From a virus, in the UHGV virus genome UHGV-0179428: DNA of 64,000 nt. One strand, written 5' to 3'. The translations under genes and the position numbers were made by a program. The notes under the pieces were generated by a model. The model saw only the letters and a list, made by a program, of their open reading frames with translations, had not been told where the DNA came from and made no database searches. This document shows, one piece after another, positions 5,514 through 15,756 of the stretch. Position 1 is the stretch's first letter; every line of letters begins with the position of its first letter.

Positions 5514-5575
5514 AAAAAGAAAAAAATAAGAAAGTTAACCTACCTCCGAAAGGAGGTAGGTACTTTTATTTATTT
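5514..5575. terminator. Bidirectional Rho-independent terminator (CCTACCTCC / GGAGGTAGG stem)
   Basis: A-run, 9-bp stem with GAAA loop, then T-rich run; sits between convergent genes 4950..5513 (+) and 5570..6427 (-). Confidence 0.6.
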
Positions 5576-6427
5576 CGCCAGGTCTGCTTCTTTTACAAAG
5601 ATACCGTCGGCGTTCAGGTAACCTTTACGGTCTTTGATTTCGTGCCAGGCCAAAGAGAAACAATGACGAATGTCCAGTTTGTAATACAAGGCGATACGAG
5701 CAAGATGAGCTAAACCCAGGCTAACGAAATCGAAACCATGATCTTTGCCTTCCATAAAGGTTGTGGCAAAACTTTCAATAGCGTGAAGGTATTGTTGATG
5801 TGGGTATCCAGCGTTGTTTAAATTTTCTTCAACCTCAGCTACATCTTCCACGTTTAAGCGTAGACCAGACTCGATGCAGTCTTCTGCCACTGTAAGGTGA
5901 CCAGAATACGCATCCCCTAATTCGATTATGTTTACCAGAACCACCAACGCATCACCAATACCATCCATGATCAAATCAGGTTTGTTTTTACTGATACCCG
6001 CCGCAATTTCACCTAACTCTTCAAAGAACTTCGTGATTTGGGTTTCCAGTTTACCGTTATCGAGAATACCACGTTCTTTAGACCAACCTTTAACGAGTTT
6101 TACACATTTTGCGATCGTGCAAACTAGAACAGATTCTGTATGCATTACCGTGCCGTTGTAAACAGCATCGGTAAGCTTAATAGGCGCTACAATTGTTTCG
6201 ATGTCCAGTTCTTGATTACCGGTGTGGCGTTTACCTTCTACACGAATACGGTTGGTACCGGGGTTTACACCAATTGTGTAAATAGCATCGAACTGTACTG
6301 CATTCTCATTCAAAGCGCGCAGTTGTGCGTTAACTTCTTCCAGGTGCTGACCAGGATTAACTACGATGTTGTAAATAGTGTTGATGTCAAAACGTTCGCC
6401 CATTTTAAACTCCATTAGATTAAACAA
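5570..6427 (-). CDS. MazG-like nucleoside triphosphate pyrophosphohydrolase with N-terminal extension
   Basis: Motif FFEELGEIAAGI...DGIGDALVVLVNIIELGDA resembles the MazG/HisE EExxE...D metal-binding helix pair; second helical half near the C-terminus. Track start is TTG; an in-frame ATG with GGAG lies a few codons downstream. Confidence 0.5.
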   Translation of the reverse strand: MFNLMEFKMGERFDINTIYNIVVNPGQHLEEVNAQLRALNENAVQFDAIYTIGVNPGTNRIRVEGKRHTGNQELDIETIVAPIKLTDAVYNGTVMHTESVLVCTIAKCVKLVKGWSKERGILDNGKLETQITKFFEELGEIAAGISKNKPDLIMDGIGDALVVLVNIIELGDAYSGHLTVAEDCIESGLRLNVEDVAEVEENLNNAGYPHQQYLHAIESFATTFMEGKDHGFDFVSLGLAHLARIALYYKLDIRHCFSLAWHEIKDRKGYLNADGIFVKEADLAK

Positions 6428-6471
6428 AAGGAATAATGATTAGGGGTGCTACATAAGCACCCCAGGAACTG

Positions 6472-6615
6472 TTAAATTTTGCAAGCCCCGCCTGAGCAGT
6501 TATCGTCTTCCGTGGTCGGGTCGGCTCCTTTCTCTACGGTCGCTTCCGGGTCTAAGCCAGGGATTGCAAATTCATCAGTTTCTTTAACGGCTTCTACTTT
6601 AACTTCTTCAGTCAT
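6472..6615 (-). CDS. Small acidic protein (47 aa), not in ORF track
   Basis: ATG-initiated ORF MTEEVKVEAVKETDEFAIPGLDPEATVEKGADPTTEDDNCSGGACKI on the strand shared by all neighbours; weak RBS. Preferred over the antisense + ORF 6479..6700. Confidence 0.3.
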   Translation of the reverse strand: MTEEVKVEAVKETDEFAIPGLDPEATVEKGADPTTEDDNCSGGACKI

Positions 6616-6658
6616 TTTAGTTTCCAAATTTCTTACAAAGGGGTTAACAGTTTTGATT

Positions 6659-6841
6659 TTAAGGTTGGCGAATGTGAGACAGAAGCAGGCCCATCCGTAA
6701 TGGAACTGACGCGGTCATTGCCCTTTTATATTGCACAGTGCGTACTTTCGATTTACCAGGTCCCTTACGTACACGGTTGTAGCCAATAAAATATAGAGTA
6801 CCTGTAAAGAATCTGAGGTTATGAAAATATGGCTTCTTCAT
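6659..6841 (-). CDS. Small basic protein (60 aa), member of R-x-x-K-G-P-x-K family
   Basis: ORF; motif YNRVRKGPGKSKVRTVQY shared with two neighbouring small ORFs. Confidence 0.45.
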   Translation of the reverse strand: MKKPYFHNLRFFTGTLYFIGYNRVRKGPGKSKVRTVQYKRAMTASVPLRMGLLLSHIRQP

Positions 6842-7023
6842 TGTTCCTCCTTCTCGAATGGGTTAGATTCAAGGAACTTGGAATAATCAAATTGAATTAC
6901 TTGGAAACGTTTACGTCCTTTACGTGGCCCTTTGCACCAGCGCGTAACAATGGTACGGAACTTCTTCGGCTCGAAATACGTTATCGTGAAATTAAGAACA
7001 TCGTCTAACATATTACCCCCCAT
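6838..7023 (-). CDS. Small basic protein (61 aa), member of R-x-x-K-G-P-x-K family
   Basis: ORF; motif VTRWCKGPRKGRKRFQVIQF; overlaps stop/start with the downstream paralog. Confidence 0.45.
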   Translation of the reverse strand: MGGNMLDDVLNFTITYFEPKKFRTIVTRWCKGPRKGRKRFQVIQFDYSKFLESNPFEKEEQ

Positions 7024-7031
7024 AGTTCACC

Positions 7032-7421
7032 TTAATCGGTGTGCAAAGTGAGATAATTACTTTCAAAATCGAAAGTTTCGATTAGTCTTTGCAATTTTTC
7101 CAACGTGCGCTGTTTCCAGTCGTCTCGTGGCGTAGGCTGATCCAATTCTTCAATATATTGTTTAAAGGCGGTAAGTTGTTCTTTATTGATTGCGAACTCA
7201 CTGCTACCGCATACCGTCGTTATATTGAATTCGGATTTAAGTTTGTTAAATGCGTTCCAACAAAACGACAGCCTTTCCGTCCACATTAATTCACCCTGAT
7301 CGAATATTTCTCCGAGTATGTCGTCAACATGATCGACGTAATATTGGTGCTCCCAAGCCTGACGCACGGATTCTTTTACAGCGGATTTTGAGTATGAATA
7401 AACGTAGATATCGATTGACAT
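7032..7421 (-). CDS. Hypothetical protein (129 aa)
   Basis: ORF in the leftward operon; no recognisable motif. Confidence 0.5.
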   Translation of the reverse strand: MSIDIYVYSYSKSAVKESVRQAWEHQYYVDHVDDILGEIFDQGELMWTERLSFCWNAFNKLKSEFNITTVCGSSEFAINKEQLTAFKQYIEELDQPTPRDDWKQRTLEKLQRLIETFDFESNYLTLHTD

Positions 7422-7449
7422 AATGAATTTACTCCCTGAGTTAATTTAA

Positions 7450-7620
7450 TCAGTAAGGTCGGATTATAACCTTTTCGAAGTATTTATAAATAAACACCTT
7501 CTTGGTTTGATGTTTTCTTGGACCTTTCTTGATACGAGAGATCAAGATACGATCGATGTAACATTCTTTTATAACACGTCTTCTAGGAATGTAACAGGGA
7601 ACCGCCTCTAATTCTTCCAT
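7450..7620 (-). CDS. Small basic protein (56 aa), third member of R-x-x-K-G-P-x-K family; not in ORF track
   Basis: ATG ORF MEELEAVPCYIPRRRVIKECYIDRILISRIKKGPRKHQTKKVFIYKYFEKVIIRPY; motif conservation with 6659..6841 and 6838..7023 supports it despite a weak RBS. Confidence 0.35.
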   Translation of the reverse strand: MEELEAVPCYIPRRRVIKECYIDRILISRIKKGPRKHQTKKVFIYKYFEKVIIRPY

Positions 7621-7637
7621 ACAACTAACCCCACTGA

Positions 7638-8084
7638 TTAACCCATTAAATGTATTACAACGTCTTTAGTTACTGAGTTTGCTAGTAAGCGGAAAAACTT
7701 CATGTAACGGAAAATGCTAAAGAAAACCCCAGCGTTATCTACAATAACAAGACTGTATTTTTCTTTTTCTGTACCCATTTGGTAACCGATGATTTGGGTG
7801 ATATTCTCAGGTAAGTCTTCGAGACCCAAACGGAATATCACGTCGTCTTCTAAGAACCCTTTTGGGTTAACGAATAATACTTTCCCTTTATGGTTCTTAG
7901 CTAACTCGACACCGAAGTCTGTAAGTCCTGTCTGCCTGCCTGTACCGTAGCGGATAGTACGAAATTCAGATAAAGCTTTGGCTCCATAACGATCAGTAAA
8001 CGGATTATCTTTAGAATCCAGATCAGTTAAACCTTTTGATAATTCTTCTACTACGATGTTATAGTTAACATGAGTTTTAGACAT
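7638..8084 (-). CDS. Hypothetical protein (148 aa)
   Basis: ORF in the leftward operon. Confidence 0.5.
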   Translation of the reverse strand: MSKTHVNYNIVVEELSKGLTDLDSKDNPFTDRYGAKALSEFRTIRYGTGRQTGLTDFGVELAKNHKGKVLFVNPKGFLEDDVIFRLGLEDLPENITQIIGYQMGTEKEKYSLVIVDNAGVFFSIFRYMKFFRLLANSVTKDVVIHLMG

Positions 8085-8118: not shown

Positions 8119-8415
8119 TTATTGAAAATCTCGTTTGGCCTTGCTGATGATTTGAGATATTCGGCTTGGCGACACTCCGTGTATTTCGGCCAATTTCTTG
8201 TTACTTAGGCCACCCAATTTACCAACAAGAATATTCAATACACGTAAGTCTTTTAACGTTGCCGAAATCTTTTCTAAGATTTCGATATCACCTTGATCAA
8301 ACTTACCTTTGGTCTGCAATGCTATCCCAGCACGCTCGGTAATAGTTTTTAGCTCAGCTAATCGACTAATGCCGAAAGAAGTTAACTCCGCGTACGATTT
8401 CTCATTAATCATCAT
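8119..8415 (-). CDS. Small HTH protein resembling sigma-70 region 4 (possible transcription regulator or sigma-like factor)
   Basis: C-terminal LSNKKLAEIHGVSPSRISQIISKAKRDF resembles the region 4.2 helix-turn-helix of sigma-70 family proteins (pattern G-V-S-x-x-R-I-S-Q-I-x-x-K-A). Confidence 0.4.
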   Translation of the reverse strand: MMINEKSYAELTSFGISRLAELKTITERAGIALQTKGKFDQGDIEILEKISATLKDLRVLNILVGKLGGLSNKKLAEIHGVSPSRISQIISKAKRDFQ

Positions 8416-8422
8416 GTACCCC

Positions 8423-9457
8423 TTAGACAGCTATGGGAGCTTTAATTGTGTCGTGCGATTGATATCCAACCAATTCGAAGTCTTCGTATTTGTAATCGAA
8501 GATAGAATCAGGTTTACGTTTGATAACCAGCTTAGGTAGCGGGTAAGGTTCGCGTGTAAGTTGAAGTTTTGCCTGCTCCAGATGGTTAGAGTAAAGATGA
8601 ACATCTACGCCACTATAAACCAACTCGTCTGGAACCATATTGAGTTGTTGAGCAATCATGTGAGTTAACAACGCGTAAGAAGCGACGTTAAACGGTGCGC
8701 CAAGTAGGTAATCGTTGCTCCGCATCATGTAAAAACATGAAAGCTTACGGCGTGGAATGCCCTCACGATCTAAAGTTTCATGAAGTCGTTCTTCATCATC
8801 AATATCTTCGTGATTAATAAGTGGTGCGTTCGCAAATTTTTCCGGTTCGTTTACTTCGTACCAATCCAGTCGCTCAAGCAGTGACATTTCCGTTGTGTAG
8901 AATTGGAAATAGTTGTGGCATGGGTTAAGTGCCATATCGTCTAGGTCTGCTACATTCCAGGCACTAACGATAATACGGCGGGAGTCAGGGTCTTCACGAA
9001 GTTGCTGGATAACTTTACTGATCTGGTCATGTGCTTTTTCATAAACCAAATACGTCGTACCATCTTCCTTCATATTCCCAATATACTTGTAACCCCGCTG
9101 CATTAGTTGTTGTGTACGTCTTACGTCATGACACTCCACAACTTTACAGTCGCGCCATTCACGCCACTGGTGCCCGTAAACCGGACCTAAATCCCCTTCG
9201 TTGTTTGCCCATTCGTTCCAAATTTTTACCCCATTCTCTTGCAGGTACTTCACGTTAGTGTCACCGTTTAAGAACCACAGCAGTTCATGAATGATACTTT
9301 TCAGGTGAACCTTTTTCGTAGTAACTAATGGGAAACCTTCTTTCAGATCAAAACGTAGTTGACGGCCAAATACAGAAAGTGTCCCTACGCCTGTACGGTC
9401 TTTCTTGACAACACCGTTATCCAGAATGTCTTGCATTAACGCTAAATACTGTTTCAT
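8423..9457 (-). CDS. thyA: Thymidylate synthase (ThyA family) with two in-frame insertions
   Basis: N-terminus [15 protein letters not shown]...[12 protein letters not shown], catalytic-Cys motif [24 protein letters not shown] and C-terminus IKAPIAV are near-colinear with enterobacterial ThyA as I recall it. 344 aa versus ~264 aa because of two ~40-aa insertions (after WREW and after FQFYTTE). Confidence 0.85.
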
Positions 9458-9774
9458 TTGTTATTATTCCCCATTCGTTTCGTTAAAATATCTAAATTGC
9501 GCTGCGCTTGTTCAGGACTAAAAATAATGTTTTCCTGGCTATACGTTACATGAAAATGTTTTTTGTTAACAATGTCAACCTTAAGGCCACGAACTTCGAA
9601 TTGCCGTTTAGCCTCTTCAACCTTTTTTGGTGAGATTCTAAGAAGACCTGGAAATAGTTCGTCTGCGGGAACGTAGTATTTGATTTCCTTAGTCTCGGGA
9701 ATTAACTCGATTCTATCTAAACTGACGCTTATAATCTCGTCAATCTTTTTCTTGATATTGTCGTTCGCAACCAT
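9454..9774 (-). CDS. Hypothetical protein (106 aa)
   Basis: ORF with 4-nt overlap to thyA. Confidence 0.5.
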
Positions 9775-10082
9775 CAGATTTTGTCCCTTTCGAGTTCAGT
9801 TAAAATTTCAAACAGGTCTGCGTTGGATTGGAGTACGACTTCACTGCCTTCTGCTACAACGGTAATTGTTGGTTTCTTACCACGTAGCAAGAACTCCCAA
9901 CGCATGGTTCTTACGTGGCTGTCGAGTAACTGCTTTAATTTGTGGTTAACTTCGACTTCCAATTTGCCCAGTAACTGTGGTGTAATAGCTTCGCCTGAGT
10001 TTTTGTTATAAAGTGTACGCACTAAAGAACGTAAAGAATAACCAATGCACTGCGAAATTGCCCAACCCGAATAGTTTTCCAT
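9774..10082 (-). CDS. Hypothetical protein (102 aa)
   Basis: ORF, translationally coupled to neighbours. Confidence 0.5.
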   Translation of the reverse strand: MENYSGWAISQCIGYSLRSLVRTLYNKNSGEAITPQLLGKLEVEVNHKLKQLLDSHVRTMRWEFLLRGKKPTITVVAEGSEVVLQSNADLFEILTELERDKI

Positions 10083-10083
10083 G

Positions 10084-10629
10084 TTAATCCTTCAAAATGT
10101 CTTTAAGCTTTAGTTTTGTATAGAACGGAGAACTACTTAGTTCTTCTGTCCAACTTATACGTCCGTTCTGTAGAACCCGGTCGAAGATTAGGCCGTTCAT
10201 CTTTACAATTCTAGCCAACTGATAAAAGAGCGTCGTGAGGTGTAGTCGGCGTTCCATTTGTGCGCGTGCGGTACAACTGCGTACCGCTTTGATAGCAAGT
10301 ACCGCTTCTGGCATCAACGTCACCGCGATTGTCTCAGGATGTTCGTTTTTCCATTTCTTAATGGCTAGTAGTCTGTGTAACGATTTTTCAAGGGGACGTA
10401 AATCCCCGTTATTCATCACGTAAACCAAAGCAGCAATATCCCACAAGGCAATACCTACTGCTTTAGCAACAAACAACCCGTCGTGTGCTGTCGTGGATTC
10501 ACAGACTTTGCCAATACTTCCATAAACACGTGCGGTCCATACGTCTGTCTGTTCGCCGGGTTTTATACCCGCGTTATCCAGAAAGTGTTTAAACGTATTA
10601 ACGTGATCAGTTAACTGTATTTGTTTCAT
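10084..10629 (-). CDS. Hypothetical protein (181 aa)
   Basis: ORF. Confidence 0.5.
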   Translation of the reverse strand: MKQIQLTDHVNTFKHFLDNAGIKPGEQTDVWTARVYGSIGKVCESTTAHDGLFVAKAVGIALWDIAALVYVMNNGDLRPLEKSLHRLLAIKKWKNEHPETIAVTLMPEAVLAIKAVRSCTARAQMERRLHLTTLFYQLARIVKMNGLIFDRVLQNGRISWTEELSSSPFYTKLKLKDILKD

Positions 10630-10643
10630 TTCCGATACCCGAT

Positions 10644-11108
10644 TTAGTCACGAGACTTTATTTTAAGGTACGCAACCGCAGCTCCCACGATTGCAATCCC
10701 GGCACCCCAACCTATCTTTTCTATTACACCCATATCGTCCCATCTTTTCTCTTCGTTACGTCGTTTGGCCTCTTCTGCCCGTTCTCTCCACATCGCTTCG
10801 CGTTCCAGACAGCTGGGATTTATTTCCTCTTCACAACGTCGTTTCCGTTCTTCTTCCCCAATCAGTTCTTCTAAATAGAGCCTCGTTTCTTCCACAGCTT
10901 GTTCATAGACGTCTATGCGATCGGGAAGAACTCTCCTGTGAGCGGCTTTGTTGCGAACGGAAGCAATCATGTGGAGTTTCCGTTCGTATTTTGGTTCGAG
11001 AAGATGAGCTATGCTTTTGGTCTTCCCATGAAGCCCATGACCGGTACCGCCGAGTTTTTCCACAAGTTCTTCTACAGAAATTGCAAGATCGAGAATATAT
11101 CCACGCAT
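10644..11108 (-). CDS. HEPN-like (R-x4-H motif) protein with charged coiled region and C-terminal transmembrane anchor
   Basis: Start moved to the ATG at 11108 (GGAG 8 nt upstream). Motif ASVRNKAAHRR fits the HEPN R-x(4-6)-H signature; Glu/Arg-rich helix; C-terminal hydrophobic GWGAGIAIVGAAVAYL. Confidence 0.4.
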   Translation of the reverse strand: MRGYILDLAISVEELVEKLGGTGHGLHGKTKSIAHLLEPKYERKLHMIASVRNKAAHRRVLPDRIDVYEQAVEETRLYLEELIGEEERKRRCEEEINPSCLEREAMWRERAEEAKRRNEEKRWDDMGVIEKIGWGAGIAIVGAAVAYLKIKSRD

Positions 11109-11168
11109 AATTGTTTCTCCGCTTAAACGCAGTCTTGGGAGACATAAGTCTGTTCCCAACTGTAAAAA

Positions 11169-11537
11169 TCATTTCAACAAAACAAGATGAATTTGGTATT
11201 CGTCATCCGCAGGAGAAGAATAATCGCCAGTTACAGGTAACGTTATATCTCCCAGTATAGCGTGGAAGGGTAATCCACGAGCAGCCTCAACTGTTCGTAC
11301 AAGCGGAAAACCTGTTCTTTTAATCCAATTGTAATCAACAAACATAACGCCGCCAGGACTTCCCGAACCTTCCCACACACGAATTTCCACAGTCTTTCCC
11401 GAAAAGTTGGCAAGTACAGTGCGCAGCCCTAATTGCACATAACGGGGGAAGGGTACTTCAATAACTTGTTTTGGTAAAACAAATTCAGGGAATTTAAAAC
11501 CGAAACCTTTGGGTGTACTAAAAAACTGAGCTTGCAT
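11169..11537 (-). CDS. Hypothetical protein (122 aa)
   Basis: ORF with AGGAG RBS. Confidence 0.5.
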   Translation of the reverse strand: MQAQFFSTPKGFGFKFPEFVLPKQVIEVPFPRYVQLGLRTVLANFSGKTVEIRVWEGSGSPGGVMFVDYNWIKRTGFPLVRTVEAARGLPFHAILGDITLPVTGDYSSPADDEYQIHLVLLK

Positions 11538-11555
11538 GGTAATTCTCCTTTAGGG

Positions 11556-11594
11556 TAAAAAATGAAAATACCCTACTCCTAGTCAGGAGTAGGG
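11556..11594 (-). terminator. Rho-independent terminator (CCCTACTCCT / AGGAGTAGGG stem)
   Basis: 10-bp stem, AGTC loop, T-run on the minus strand; lies just after the stop of 11601..12260. Confidence 0.6.
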
Positions 11595-11600
11595 TAGGTG

Positions 11601-12260
11601 TTACATACGAGTAACTGAATCCCAGTAATCACGAAGATATTCTTGGTCTTCAGGATCTTTCGGTGTAGCCGGAATGTGGCCGTCAAACTCAAACGGAATT
11701 ACAGACAGAACATCCGCAATCTCGTAACGCTCGACTTCCAGTTCAACTTTCACCCAGTCACCGACGCTGGTACTACTACGCATCTCGGTGAGGAGATCGT
11801 TAAAGTCAGCCGAAACTTCAATTGCAGGGTGTCCGGTGGTGATAGTGAAAATATCAATATCCCAATGCTTAGCGCCTTCATCGGCTAATTCACCCGGTTC
11901 TAAGTGGATACGTTTCACCAGGTGAGCCAAATAACCGTCCTTGTAAAAAGAGAGTGCAGAACTAATACCGATATCCGAATTCTCTTCAACCTTTCCGTCC
12001 AGGAATTTACGCTTAAGCGTTAGCTGTGCTGTACCGTCTTCTTTAATACGGATACGACGACGCCCACCTTCTATCGGCATGAGAATGTCCATGAACATCT
12101 TAGCGGACTGTGCGTGTAACCAATCCCATCCCGCTTGCGTAGGTTTTACCCAAACACAATATTCCTTTTCCACTTCATGTTTAATGGATTCGCCTGCAAC
12201 GCGAATAACCTCTTCTTCCTGCGCTTTTTCCAATTGCGCAAGGGTATCGAATAATCCCAT
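11601..12260 (-). CDS. Hypothetical protein (219 aa); weak CYTH/triphosphate-tunnel-like residue pattern
   Basis: ORF. E-x-E-K near the N-terminus, RRRIRIK...LTLKRK, and ELEVE near the C-terminus loosely resemble CYTH/TTM signature strands; inference only. Confidence 0.5.
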   Translation of the reverse strand: MGLFDTLAQLEKAQEEEVIRVAGESIKHEVEKEYCVWVKPTQAGWDWLHAQSAKMFMDILMPIEGGRRRIRIKEDGTAQLTLKRKFLDGKVEENSDIGISSALSFYKDGYLAHLVKRIHLEPGELADEGAKHWDIDIFTITTGHPAIEVSADFNDLLTEMRSSTSVGDWVKVELEVERYEIADVLSVIPFEFDGHIPATPKDPEDQEYLRDYWDSVTRM

Positions 12261-13102
12261 TAGATTAATCCCATACTTTCACTGACGCTCGTAATGTCGA
12301 ACGCTGTGTCGTTAAAGTCGATGTTTTCTACAATAGAAACCACCAGATTAGGAAGCCATTCCGAATGGGGTGGTGTAATAACCCGGCCGTTCATAACGTA
12401 GTAGTGCAAGAACGGTAATCCCATCGAATGGCAGTACGATAACACATTCCCTAAGCAGCTTCCGTCAAACTTCAAGAGTCGGAGCTTACGCAGTAATGCG
12501 TTTTGAAATGCACCGTTCGCGTAATCGCTAAACTCGCCAGGCCGATAATCCGTGCCCCCGTAAATACTCGCCTTTAATCGTCGACCGCGTTGTATACATT
12601 CAGCCCCAGTCAGGGTGCGTAATAAACGGATGTCAGGATATTCAGTTTCCAAACGACCCAAAGCGTTTATTCCGTAACCTTTGTAGAACAGATAGTCTAC
12701 GATCCTTAAATAATGATAGTAGCCTTCTAACGTTAAAAACTGACCGTGAATCGTGTCGAATTTCGCACCGTTAGGTTGCGCGTAGAAGTTACTGATCATT
12801 TTCCCTACGGTAGTACGACCGTTAGAGTAAAGGTTAAGATGGTTGATACCATCGGTAAAAGGGAGTTTTTCGGGTAACGCACAAACGTAGCCTAAACGAC
12901 GAAGGTATAGGACATAAACAAAGCGCTCATCAGGAGTAAGCACGATGTTTGACGCGTTAACGTATCCATTAGGATTATTTTGGCCAGGTTGATAACCCAG
13001 CGTTAATGCCAAAGCGTGATTGTCTTCGCCCTGACTTTTGATCTTCTTTAATACGGAACGCAGTAATTGTGGTTCGGACATAACCGGCCTCTTAAATTGC
13101 AA
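12260..13102 (-). CDS. Hypothetical protein (280 aa)
   Basis: ORF. Confidence 0.5.
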   Translation of the reverse strand: MQFKRPVMSEPQLLRSVLKKIKSQGEDNHALALTLGYQPGQNNPNGYVNASNIVLTPDERFVYVLYLRRLGYVCALPEKLPFTDGINHLNLYSNGRTTVGKMISNFYAQPNGAKFDTIHGQFLTLEGYYHYLRIVDYLFYKGYGINALGRLETEYPDIRLLRTLTGAECIQRGRRLKASIYGGTDYRPGEFSDYANGAFQNALLRKLRLLKFDGSCLGNVLSYCHSMGLPFLHYYVMNGRVITPPHSEWLPNLVVSIVENIDFNDTAFDITSVSESMGLI

Positions 13103-14393
13103 AATAGTCTTCCACGATTTTATCGGTAGACTGGTAACTTACACTGCCTGCAGCAATCACGTAATTACGTTTCTCGGTGGTCAGTAGCGCCTGAATCGCA
13201 TTTACGCCCGCATAGGTGTAAAGTTTAAGTTCAGTCATTTCTGGCGTGATGTTTTTCGCTTTGTCCCATTTTGCATCTAATCCTTTAAATAGCGTTAATA
13301 GACGAGTGCCATACGTTTTGAAACTGACACCGGGTTCAACCCGAAGGTTAGCCATAAGGTTCTGGATAACGGTGGTTGCGATCTGAGTCCCTTGCCCCGG
13401 TTGGAGTTTATCCAGATAGTATTCCGTTGAATCCAGATTACCTGTCGCTGCTGCCTGAATCATCAGCTCGCCGTACAGTACCTCTTTCGCTTGTGCATCA
13501 GTAATCGCTTGAAGCATCGGTTCGATTTTAGCCGGTAAACCATAACTGTTCAGTTTAGTAGACAGGCCATAAATCAGCGCTGAAGAGGTATTAATGTCTA
13601 ACGTGGAGAAACTGTTGCTGCCTTTAAAGCTGTTAATCAGGTTATCGATGGCTAGGAAGTCGTCTAAGTCTTTGTAGCTGTCGAAAGTATGCTGTACGTC
13701 ATCAACGATCGAGGTGATTTGATAACGCATACTGTTGACTTCAGACATAAACCCGTTGACTTCTTGACTAACTTCCGAGGGGAGTTTAGCCAGTTGCCCA
13801 GCAATGTTCATCGTTCCTTCGAGACGTTTTTTCACCGAGTTAAAGTCAGTACCGATACCTGATAAAACAGAGTCGGTTAAGCTGCCGATGCTGTCCCACC
13901 CTTTATTTAACAGTTTCCCCATCCCACCCGGACTTAGGTAGTCTAACGCCTTTAGACCATCTTCATCCTTTTTCTTAAAAGGTTCAGAAACGTCACGCTT
14001 TTGCGGATCGAGGACAGGAAGTGTTTCTTTGGTATTAGATGCAAAACCGGGAACCTTTTGTCCTGGAGATACACCGGAAGCCGAACTCCCCGCAGTCTTA
14101 CTTCCGCCAATACTGGCGGTATCGCTACCGCCAAAAAGGTTACCAATTTTGCTGGTCAGCTCGTTGCCGCCGCCAATCAGTTTGTTGAATGTTTCACCAG
14201 CACGTTCTGATAATCGGTTGACGCTATCGACCGTGCTTTTAATACCACGCTCCGCATTCTCCACCGTCGATTGTACGCGGTTTGCGGCGTTCTTTGCCGT
14301 ATTAACGGAATTATCGATTGCTGACTGACCTTTATTTATCTGACTGGTTATTTGGTCTATTTTCATTCTGGTCTCCAATTTGGTATTCGTCAA
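13092..14393 (-). CDS. Hypothetical protein (433 aa) with low-complexity Ser/Gly/Asn-rich N-terminal region
   Basis: ORF; N-terminal ~150 aa polar repeats, possibly coiled or disordered. Confidence 0.5.
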   Translation of the reverse strand: MTNTKLETRMKIDQITSQINKGQSAIDNSVNTAKNAANRVQSTVENAERGIKSTVDSVNRLSERAGETFNKLIGGGNELTSKIGNLFGGSDTASIGGSKTAGSSASGVSPGQKVPGFASNTKETLPVLDPQKRDVSEPFKKKDEDGLKALDYLSPGGMGKLLNKGWDSIGSLTDSVLSGIGTDFNSVKKRLEGTMNIAGQLAKLPSEVSQEVNGFMSEVNSMRYQITSIVDDVQHTFDSYKDLDDFLAIDNLINSFKGSNSFSTLDINTSSALIYGLSTKLNSYGLPAKIEPMLQAITDAQAKEVLYGELMIQAAATGNLDSTEYYLDKLQPGQGTQIATTVIQNLMANLRVEPGVSFKTYGTRLLTLFKGLDAKWDKAKNITPEMTELKLYTYAGVNAIQALLTTEKRNYVIAAGSVSYQSTDKIVEDYFAI

Positions 14394-15177
14394 GGTTTAC
14401 CGTGACCTGAACTTCGTAGATTTTATTGTCTTTCTGACGCCTTAAGGTCAGAAGGATTTCGAAACTACGAACATCAATTGCCTTGAGTACCCTCATAAAC
14501 CATTTCCAGGAAAACTTCTTTTTTAACCTTAGATTGTGCTGCATGTTGTGCCGCAAATCATTTCGTTTCGACGGCGTCTGTTCACAGTTAGCAGGATCGT
14601 TAACGAAGTTTGTGGAAAGACGATACCACCAGTCCGCATTCATTTTCATGTTTGCGAAGATAGTCCAAGTTAACCGAGATAACGGATGTACCATCATCTT
14701 TGCGGTCTCACCACAGTTCTGGAAATAACGGTTCAATTGCGCAGTTGCAGACTCTTTAGGTCGTTCGTCGTTATCTTCGAACAAATCCCGAGCGAGATCT
14801 TCACGCACGCGTGTGGTAATTTCAGATACGGTTTTTGTTTTGAAGTGTCCTCGGTAAGTGGTTACACAAATCCGCAGTGTCTCCACTCCGGTAATCACCA
14901 ACCCTTCTGTAAAACCTCGCCAGGTAAGATCGACAGGTAGTGCAGGGATGTTACCTGAACTCAGCTTCGTGGAGATACGTTGTATTCGATCGTCCATCGT
15001 TGCTTTTGAACGTGTTTTAAATTCTGGAGACAGAATATGTTTGGCGACGGCGAGTTTATAATCCGAAGGCTTCCATCCGATCAATTCTTTATAATTCCAA
15101 TATAGTGTTTGAAGTGGTCCGCCTGCACGTTCGTCTTCAGCGTCCACGACCACACTTACTTTTTTGCTATCCATCAC
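14332..15177 (-). CDS. Hypothetical protein (281 aa)
   Basis: ORF. Confidence 0.5.
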   Translation of the reverse strand: MMDSKKVSVVVDAEDERAGGPLQTLYWNYKELIGWKPSDYKLAVAKHILSPEFKTRSKATMDDRIQRISTKLSSGNIPALPVDLTWRGFTEGLVITGVETLRICVTTYRGHFKTKTVSEITTRVREDLARDLFEDNDERPKESATAQLNRYFQNCGETAKMMVHPLSRLTWTIFANMKMNADWWYRLSTNFVNDPANCEQTPSKRNDLRHNMQHNLRLKKKFSWKWFMRVLKAIDVRSFEILLTLRRQKDNKIYEVQVTVNLDEYQIGDQNENRPNNQSDK

Positions 15178-15207
15178 ATCACCTTGTTACAAGGGGTTAC
15201 TGGTTTA

Positions 15208-15756
15208 TTAAATAGGACGTTCTAAAAGGTAGTGCTCAATCAACGTTTCCAGTTCCCGGAATAAATGCGCAGTTTGATTTACCAGCGCTTTGTCTTCGTC
15301 GGACTCCGGTTTAAGGAACGCCGATTCATAAGGTTGAATTAGCGCGAGTAATTTACCCAGCTTATAAGCGGCAACCTCAGGACTGGACGTCCCAAAATAA
15401 GTGTCTAGCCATCGGTATTCCGCCAAGTCGTTTCGTTTATTTAAAGCGTCAGGTAATGGCAGCCATTCGATTGAACTCCTGTTAATAGCTCGTTGGTATT
15501 CATTAATGAGAAATGCCAAACGTTGATAAACGAGGTCAATGTTATTAATACGCAATTCGAGGAAACCGCGAAGGCTGGGACGAAAGGGTTCTTCATTTAT
15601 GTTTAAAGGCAACGTAAGCAATTGTAAGCCGGTAAAGACTCTGACATAGGGGTTGTGGGTGTTCTTATGGAACTCCTGCTTCAGAGACTCTCTGAGGGCT
15701 TTTAAACGATTATTCTCTAACCGTTGTTTAAAACGAGTTATTATTCCTGTTAACAT
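15208..15756 (-). CDS. Hypothetical protein (182 aa)
   Basis: ORF. Confidence 0.5.
   Translation of the reverse strand: MLTGIITRFKQRLENNRLKALRESLKQEFHKNTHNPYVRVFTGLQLLTLPLNINEEPFRPSLRGFLELRINNIDLVYQRLAFLINEYQRAINRSSIEWLPLPDALNKRNDLAEYRWLDTYFGTSSPEVAAYKLGKLLALIQPYESAFLKPESDEDKALVNQTAHLFRELETLIEHYLLERPI

Follow-up and report, generated by a model that had tools for sequence, protein, structure and literature searches.

Three short open reading frames (ORFs) in a stretch of 64,000 nucleotides (nt) of the virus genome UHGV-0179428, hereafter referred to as the window, are genuine genes that encode proteins of a single family not recognised before, which is limited to two lineages of enterobacterial jumbo phages, that of the window and that of Escherichia phage vB_EcoM_Goslar (Goslar). 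We named these ORFs W1, W2 and W3. Members of the family comprise 48-80 amino acids (aa), have an isoelectric point (pI) of 9.5-11.7 and share a near-invariant [RK]-[KR]-G-P-x-K-G-[RK] core flanked by alternating hydrophobic residues. With a probability of roughly 0.45, we propose that they are early accessory proteins, which bind RNA or DNA, or less plausibly another polyanion, via an exposed loop and the basic faces of a hairpin. They form an orphan family within a well-known category, the small lineage-specific early proteins of phages.

A first-pass annotation of the window had described the three ORFs as tandem copies with a common basic core. Coordinates and peptides given there proved to be correct, with all three ORFs on the minus strand (Table 1). 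Translated in six frames, the 64 kb contain the string K-G-P-[RGK]-K exactly three times, once each in W1, W2 and W3, while 0.12 would be expected from the amino-acid frequencies. Markov-1 random sequences gave a mean of 0.09, with fewer than three occurrences in each of 200 randomisations. The motif codons of the three copies differ synonymously (R CGT/CGC/CGT, K AAG/AAA/AAA, G GGA/GGG/GGT, P CCT/CCA/CCA) and a repeat finder revealed no direct nucleotide repeat covering the motif. In agreement with the earlier proposal, the motif is therefore conserved at the protein level and does not go back to a repeat in the DNA.

W2 and W1 are arranged in tandem, the stop codon of W2 overlapping the start codon of W1 as ATGA. 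This part of the annotation holds, while W3 is separated from the other two by an unrelated acidic gene of 129 aa. A strong Shine-Dalgarno sequence, AAGGAGG, precedes W1, and AAGGTG precedes the start of W2 at 7023; most W2 orthologues start at an internal Met, which results in a protein of 57 aa (from 7011 in the window). Compared to the orthologues in four relatives from IMG/VR (L002-L005, 107-225 kb), the ratio of non-synonymous to synonymous polymorphism (pN/pS) is 0.30 for W3 (L002), 0.27-0.58 for W2 and 0.24-0.58 for W1, compared to 0.03-0.11 for the neighbouring 148-aa gene, a protein that is 95-99% identical in the same relatives. W1, W2 and W3 are therefore coding, but fast-evolving. 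Conservation inside every orthologue group is highest in the KGPxKG[RK] loop and the strands next to it, while the termini vary.

These data bear on the reading that the ORFs are chance or decaying frames and that the motif stems from a nucleotide repeat or a regulatory element. The ORFs are indeed very short; in the window W1 carries a frameshift, in L005 it is fused to the following gene, and W3 is often absent. However, synonymous motif codons, the lack of a DNA repeat, pN/pS below 1 and good ribosome-binding sites all speak for translated genes, as do the transcription of the Goslar homologues and the homology at protein level across two lineages, which have no detectable DNA similarity in this region. 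This reading is extremely unlikely, and an artefact of non-coding sequence or of repeats can practically be dismissed.

The kinship to Goslar rests on profiles. While tblastn returned no match for W1 and W2, a single marginal match of W3 (E=0.4) pointed to the gp137 region of Goslar and was later validated by profile searches. In Goslar, thyA is followed after ∼0.4 kb by three consecutive small genes annotated as 'hypothetical', which encode gp139 (QBO63932, 48 aa, KNKKGPRKGKWRY), gp138 (QBO63931, 67 aa, KHKKGCNKGKRF) and gp137 (QBO63930, 65 aa, VKRGPGKGRQKKV). Hidden Markov models (HMMs) built from the Goslar lineage only were searched against 1385 stop-to-stop segments of the window. The gp137 model ranked W3 first (E=8.6e-9) and W1 second (E=0.024), and the gp139 model retrieved W3 (E=1e-3) followed by W2 (E=4.5e-3). 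In the reverse direction, a model from the window lineage only was searched against 7015 six-frame segments of the complete Goslar genome and placed gp137 (8.4e-5), gp102 (1.1e-4) and gp139 (5.9e-3) on top. Comparison of the profiles with hhalign gave probabilities of 95% for W3 and gp137, 89% for W2 and gp139, 86% for W3 and gp139 and 62% for W2 and W3, with weak values for W1 and gp138. The motif count and these tests across lineages support the initial view of a real, locally amplified paralogous family. W3, which falls below the usual 60-aa cutoff and was thought to be supported by its motif alone, turned out to be the best-supported member. Thus, in genomes of this kind the best conservation within a family can be found in an ORF below this cutoff.

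For W1, the similarity to W2 and W3 is confined to ∼14-21 residues around the motif and statistically weak alone (hhalign P 0.003-0.015). W1 is assigned to the family because of its motif, its position, its basic composition and charge and the C-terminal NPF of its unframeshifted 74-aa orthologues. The latter end in NPFVRNLETKK and have the NPF in common with W2, while W1 of the window lost this tail by a +1 frameshift, which is seen in the DNA alignment with L004 and L005. All three ORFs display an [RK]-x-[KR]-[KR]-G-[PC]-x-K loop between strands of alternating hydrophobic residues, within 48-80 aa and at a pI > 9.5, the hairpin being a low-confidence prediction.

The protein retrieved as gp102 (Goslar_00102, 69 aa, ...NRCKKGPGKGKVKII..., MK327938 112303-112512; L010 12503-12712, minus strand) is a fourth, previously unlinked member, dispersed 18 kb from the gp137-139 triplet. 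The family HMM found no further copies in the rest of the window, and the phage of the window may have further copies outside the 64 kb. A word-indexed profile search yielded 105 cluster representatives (90% identity), all from contigs of up to 220-250 kb, which fall into the six orthologue groups W1, W2, W3, gp137, gp138 and gp139, with 29 orthologue clusters for W2. P0114 (463 aa), a cluster-mate of W2, was rejected as an unrelated clustering artefact. In an exhaustive HMMER search of 1.84 billion representatives only 10 clusters (50% identity) reached E<=0.001. All of them come from the lineages of Goslar and the window, which gives the family a narrow distribution. The contig index contained no exact match to W3, and we found no literature on Goslar gp137-139 or on the motif strings. 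Goslar serves as a main model for experimental work on nucleus-forming jumbo phages; the majority of its genes are annotated as 'hypothetical', and four of them are now placed in one family.

Nucleic-acid binding, one of the functions suggested by the first-pass annotation, is conceivable in view of the charge and predicted shape of the proteins. The net charge of the members ranges from +4 to +16, while the neighbouring genes encode neutral or acidic proteins. AlphaFold2 predicted strands at residues 5-9, 18-30 and 39-51 of W3, with the loop KKGPRKHQ at 31-38 (mean predicted local distance difference test score, pLDDT, 62.7), and at residues 9-14, 23-31 and 38-47 of W2, with the loop GPRKGR (mean pLDDT 60.2). 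Both models thus combine a short N-terminal strand with a long beta-hairpin that carries the motif as its loop, a three-stranded beta-meander. Since confidence is low and both models share most of their input alignment, this fold is to be taken as a prediction.

The predicted arrangement invites loose comparisons with known DNA-binding proteins. As a working analogy only, HU and IHF likewise possess an antiparallel beta-ribbon with a conserved Pro in a Lys/Arg-rich tip, while for the family described here this topology is predicted. The tip proline of the HU/IHF beta-ribbon arms inserts into the DNA minor groove. Cren7 and Sul7d (Sso7d/Sac7d) are likewise very basic all-beta proteins of ∼60 aa, and a flexible K/R/G-rich loop of Cren7 contacts DNA. 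AT-hook and SPKK-type minor-groove motifs are also short, basic and contain Gly and Pro, but the AT-hook sits in a disordered segment and the KGP motif in a predicted hairpin. No match to the DNABII family (HU/IHF, PF00216) or to a DNABII fold was obtained, the solved structures of Cren7 and Sul7d likewise showed no similarity in sequence or fold, and the G-R-P of the AT-hook (PF02178) is absent from all members, which have K-G-P-R/G-K instead and no match in Pfam. As all these comparisons failed, the family is not part of HU/IHF, Cren7 or Sul7d. More generally, W1, W2, W3, gp137 and gp139 had no match in Pfam at E<=10, and gp138 had a sub-threshold match to DUF7439 only (E 0.14, 12.7 bits compared to a cutoff of 27). 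W1, W2 and W3 gave nothing but noise at E>0.1 in PHROGs, and a profile search of all PDB sequences resulted in chance matches only (TubZ, PTPRZ; E>0.7).

The same comparisons address a ribosomal role, which had been suggested by the first-pass annotation. In this reading, the hairpin would bind rRNA and modulate host translation early in infection. The proteins are similar to small ribosomal proteins in size, charge and predicted beta-hairpin character, and uS17, bL21 and Hfq are among the non-significant neighbours in the fold search. No ribosomal family was matched in Pfam, PHROGs, PDB sequences or fold libraries, and none of our tests supported this function, which we regard as quite improbable.

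In the genome, the family occupies a variable slot between two fixed genes, which encode the 148-aa protein and an acidic protein of 51 aa. In the sister genera, namely in SPN3US (gp233/gp234), Asesino (gp254/gp255) and Caitlin (gp245/gp246), these two genes have orthologues that are directly adjacent, only 8-12 bp apart, and no family member was detectable in those regions. The family genes are therefore an inserted cassette in the lineage of the window. Among nine genomes of this lineage, five arrangements were found between the 148-aa gene and the 47/51-aa gene. The window has W3, the 129-aa gene, W2 and W1; L002 has W3, W2 and a divergent W1 (79 aa); L003 has W2 and W1; L004 and L005 have a variant W2 (55 aa) and W1 (74 aa, in L005 fused to the following gene); and L014-L017 have the 129-aa gene, W2 and a divergent W1. 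The cassette thus consists of two or three copies, with or without the 129-aa gene. W2- and W1-type genes are present in nine of nine genomes, and W1 occurs in two divergent allelic types. W3 is present in the window and L002 only and absent from the other seven (L003-L005, L014-L017). Conservation of the third ORF, which had been proposed as a check, is accordingly seen across the deep split to Goslar, but most of the close relatives lack this ORF.

Goslar shares with the window the location downstream of thyA, the small size and the charge of the proteins and the [RK][KR]G[PC]xKG[RK] loop, and its three genes are in tandem with adjacent ORFs overlapping. Their order, 139-138-137, is not collinear with the gp137-like, gp139-like and W1 genes of the window. 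This order is kept in one divergent Goslar-like relative (L013), whereas the cassette of the window lineage varies between near-identical genomes.

Table 1 Positions of the family genes, their motifs and neighbouring features in the window; the slot is the variable interval between the 148-aa and the 51-aa gene
Feature	Position	Strand	Remarks
W3	7450..7620	-	56 aa, pI 9.95, net charge +9; loop IKKGPRKH; orthologue of Goslar gp137
W3 motif R-x-x-K-G-P-x-K	7513..7536	-	predicted hairpin loop
W2	6838..7023	-	61 aa; loop CKGPRKGRKR; C-terminal NPF; closest to Goslar gp139
W2 motif	6919..6942	-	predicted hairpin loop
W1	6659..6841	-	60 aa, pI 11.7, net charge +13; loop VRKGPGKSK; C-terminally truncated compared to the 74-aa form
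W1 motif	6752..6775	-	
129-aa gene	7032..7421	-	acidic (pI 4.7), unrelated, no family member; occupies the slot together with the family
148-aa gene (phrog_2586)	7638..8084	-	upstream border of the slot; orthologues Caitlin gp245, SPN3US gp233, Asesino gp254
51-aa gene	6472..6627	-	acidic, ending DDNCSGGACKI; downstream border of the slot; orthologues Caitlin gp246, SPN3US gp234, Asesino gp255
thyA	8423-9457		in the operon, upstream of the slot
MazG	5570-6427		in the operon, downstream of the slot
98-aa gene	8119-8415	-	between thyA and the 148-aa gene
Ten consecutive genes	9454-15756	-	same operon, upstream
Hairpin GGGGTGC-TACATAA-GCACCCC	6443-6463		between the 51-aa gene and MazG
Stretch similar to other jumbo phages	∼6433-6565		

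The variability of the cassette is one argument for the main rival reading, in which the proteins are host-takeover or anti-defence effectors that bind other proteins. Their basic loop would dock on the acidic surface of a protein from host or phage, and an arms race would lie behind the rapid turnover of both copies and termini. A hotspot of presence and absence beside other variable accessory genes, pN/pS above that of the neighbouring gene, the two allelic types of W1, the narrow distribution and the early-looking transcription in Goslar (see below) all fit such effectors. However, strict conservation is limited to a generic Lys/Arg/Gly loop, which is better suited to a conserved polyanion than to a co-evolving protein surface. 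Furthermore, neither Pfam nor PHROGs gave a match (PADLOC was not searched), and the genomic context points to no partner. We consider protein-binding effectors a rather unlikely, but serious alternative.

Expression data are available for the Goslar homologues. At 30 min, gp137 and gp138 are represented by 174-222 raw RNA-seq reads and gp139 by 62-92 reads (Supplementary Table 2 of 10.1101/2023.09.20.558163), and per nucleotide the read numbers of the three genes are comparable to those of thyA (from 10.1101/2023.09.20.558163). Knockdown of ChmA left the levels of gp137-139 unchanged, with a log2 fold change of ∼0.2-0.45 and noisy values for gp139, and the authors associated insensitivity to this knockdown with early, pre-nuclear transcription (10.1101/2023.09.20.558163). 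The unchanged levels therefore fit an early expression of the three genes. In the part of the Goslar virion mass-spectrometry table that was covered, gp135 is listed and gp137-139 are not, which weakly disfavours a role in the virion.

Another reading takes the basic loop as a targeting signal instead of a ligand-binding site, for example for the phage nucleus, the early infection vesicle or packaging. Goslar is a nucleus-forming chimallivirus, the nucleus-forming Asesino is among the closest named relatives of the phage of the window, and there is a superficial similarity of the motif to lysine/arginine-rich localisation signals. However, the motif is found nowhere else in the six-frame translation of the window. 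In Goslar it is limited to the four small family members and occurs in none of the proteins expected inside the phage nucleus, and the covered part of the virion mass-spectrometry table does not include gp137-139. We consider targeting very unlikely as the function of the loop.

We return to the binding of a polyanion as our preferred reading. Each protein would fold into a small beta-meander of three strands and present the basic Gly-Pro loop on its long hairpin. Made early in infection as small accessory binders, the proteins would use the loop and the basic faces of the strands to bind a groove or the phosphate backbone, and the fast-evolving termini might set the specificity of the paralogues for a partner or target. 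Several observations weigh against this proposal. The motif Pro is replaced by Cys, Tyr or Val in gp138 (KKGCNKGK), and the membership of both gp138 and W1 is statistically weak. The AlphaFold2 models are of low confidence and come mostly from a common alignment, and no sequence or fold match to a known nucleic-acid-binding family was obtained in Pfam, PHROGs, PDB sequences or fold libraries. In addition, the frameshift has cost W1 of the window its C-terminal tail, W3 is dispensable in most relatives, and the RNA-seq data from Goslar speak to transcription only. Because of the Pro replacement in gp138, the frameshift of W1 and the dispensability of W3, the function is probably accessory and some copies are perhaps decaying.

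If the proteins bind nucleic acids via a new hairpin module, they would represent small viral nucleic-acid-binding proteins of a new type; if they do not, they are one more lineage-specific accessory family. A more far-reaching version, which we consider improbable, would see them as 'mini-histones' or RNA chaperones specific to chimalliviruses, which are made from the early infection vesicle and use a new beta-hairpin binding module to coat or organise the injected phage genome, its early transcripts or the nucleoid of the host, with tandem, rapidly swapping paralogues to tune the specificity. In that case they would represent a new fold class of viral nucleic-acid-organising proteins, tied to the life cycle with a phage nucleus.

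The phage of the window probably belongs to an uncultured lineage of roughly genus level (∼225 kb) of chimallivirus-type jumbo phages, judging from its closest named relatives. Its 723-aa structural protein is 67-68% identical to that of the Erwinia phages phiEaH2, Stratton and Asesino and of SPN3US-like phages of Salmonella and E. coli. Megablast of the region against 50,697 GenBank phage records gave no match, and blastn matches were limited to the conserved 51-aa gene and the adjacent hairpin stretch. A contig of 226 kb from the lineage of the window (L015) lies within a Salmonella enterica assembly. The operon has the order thyA, a helix-turn-helix (HTH) protein, the 148-aa gene, the small ORFs, the acidic 51-aa gene and MazG. 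In a scan for promoters and terminators, sigma-70-like sites were fewer than in shuffled sequences.

Some of the neighbouring genes deserve a comment. The 129-aa gene has no match in Pfam or PHROGs and is confined to the phage lineage of the window (20 clusters), where it is present in the window and in L014-L017 and absent from L002-L005. The HTH protein of 98 aa shows a weak C-terminal signal similar to HTH or sigma-70 region 4 (Pfam E ∼1e-3, below the cutoffs); its gene is present in the window, L002 and L014 and absent from L003-L005 and L015-L017. Further upstream, none of the ten consecutive genes (102-433 aa) has a Pfam match at E<=0.001.

The hairpin between the 51-aa gene and MazG has a perfect GC-rich stem of 7 bp and lies in the only part of the region with similarity at the nucleotide level (76-80%) to jumbo phages of Erwinia, Salmonella and Cronobacter. 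It may be a conserved RNA element or a terminator without a T-run.

On the other side of the 51-aa gene, the junction to W1 (6628-6680 in the window) is mutationally unstable. In L005 the stop codon of W1 is lost, which results in an in-frame fusion with the 51-aa gene (120 aa in total, 6618-6980 in L005), and the same fusion is found in P0109. In the window, W1 has the truncating +1 frameshift instead. The 51-aa protein itself ends in ...TTEDDNCSGGACKI, and its orthologues in SPN3US, Asesino, Caitlin and CR5 end in DD[NG]C[STA]GGACKI. NrdA, the class Ia ribonucleotide reductase of E. coli, ends in ...IQDDGCESGACKI, a tail that carries the redox-shuttle cysteines C754 and C759. From this resemblance, the 51-aa protein looks like a free-standing mimic of the C-terminal tail of the alpha subunit of ribonucleotide reductase, conserved across enterobacterial chimalliviruses and encoded between thyA and MazG. 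Such a mimic could tap or block the electron relay from thioredoxin or glutaredoxin to ribonucleotide reductase.
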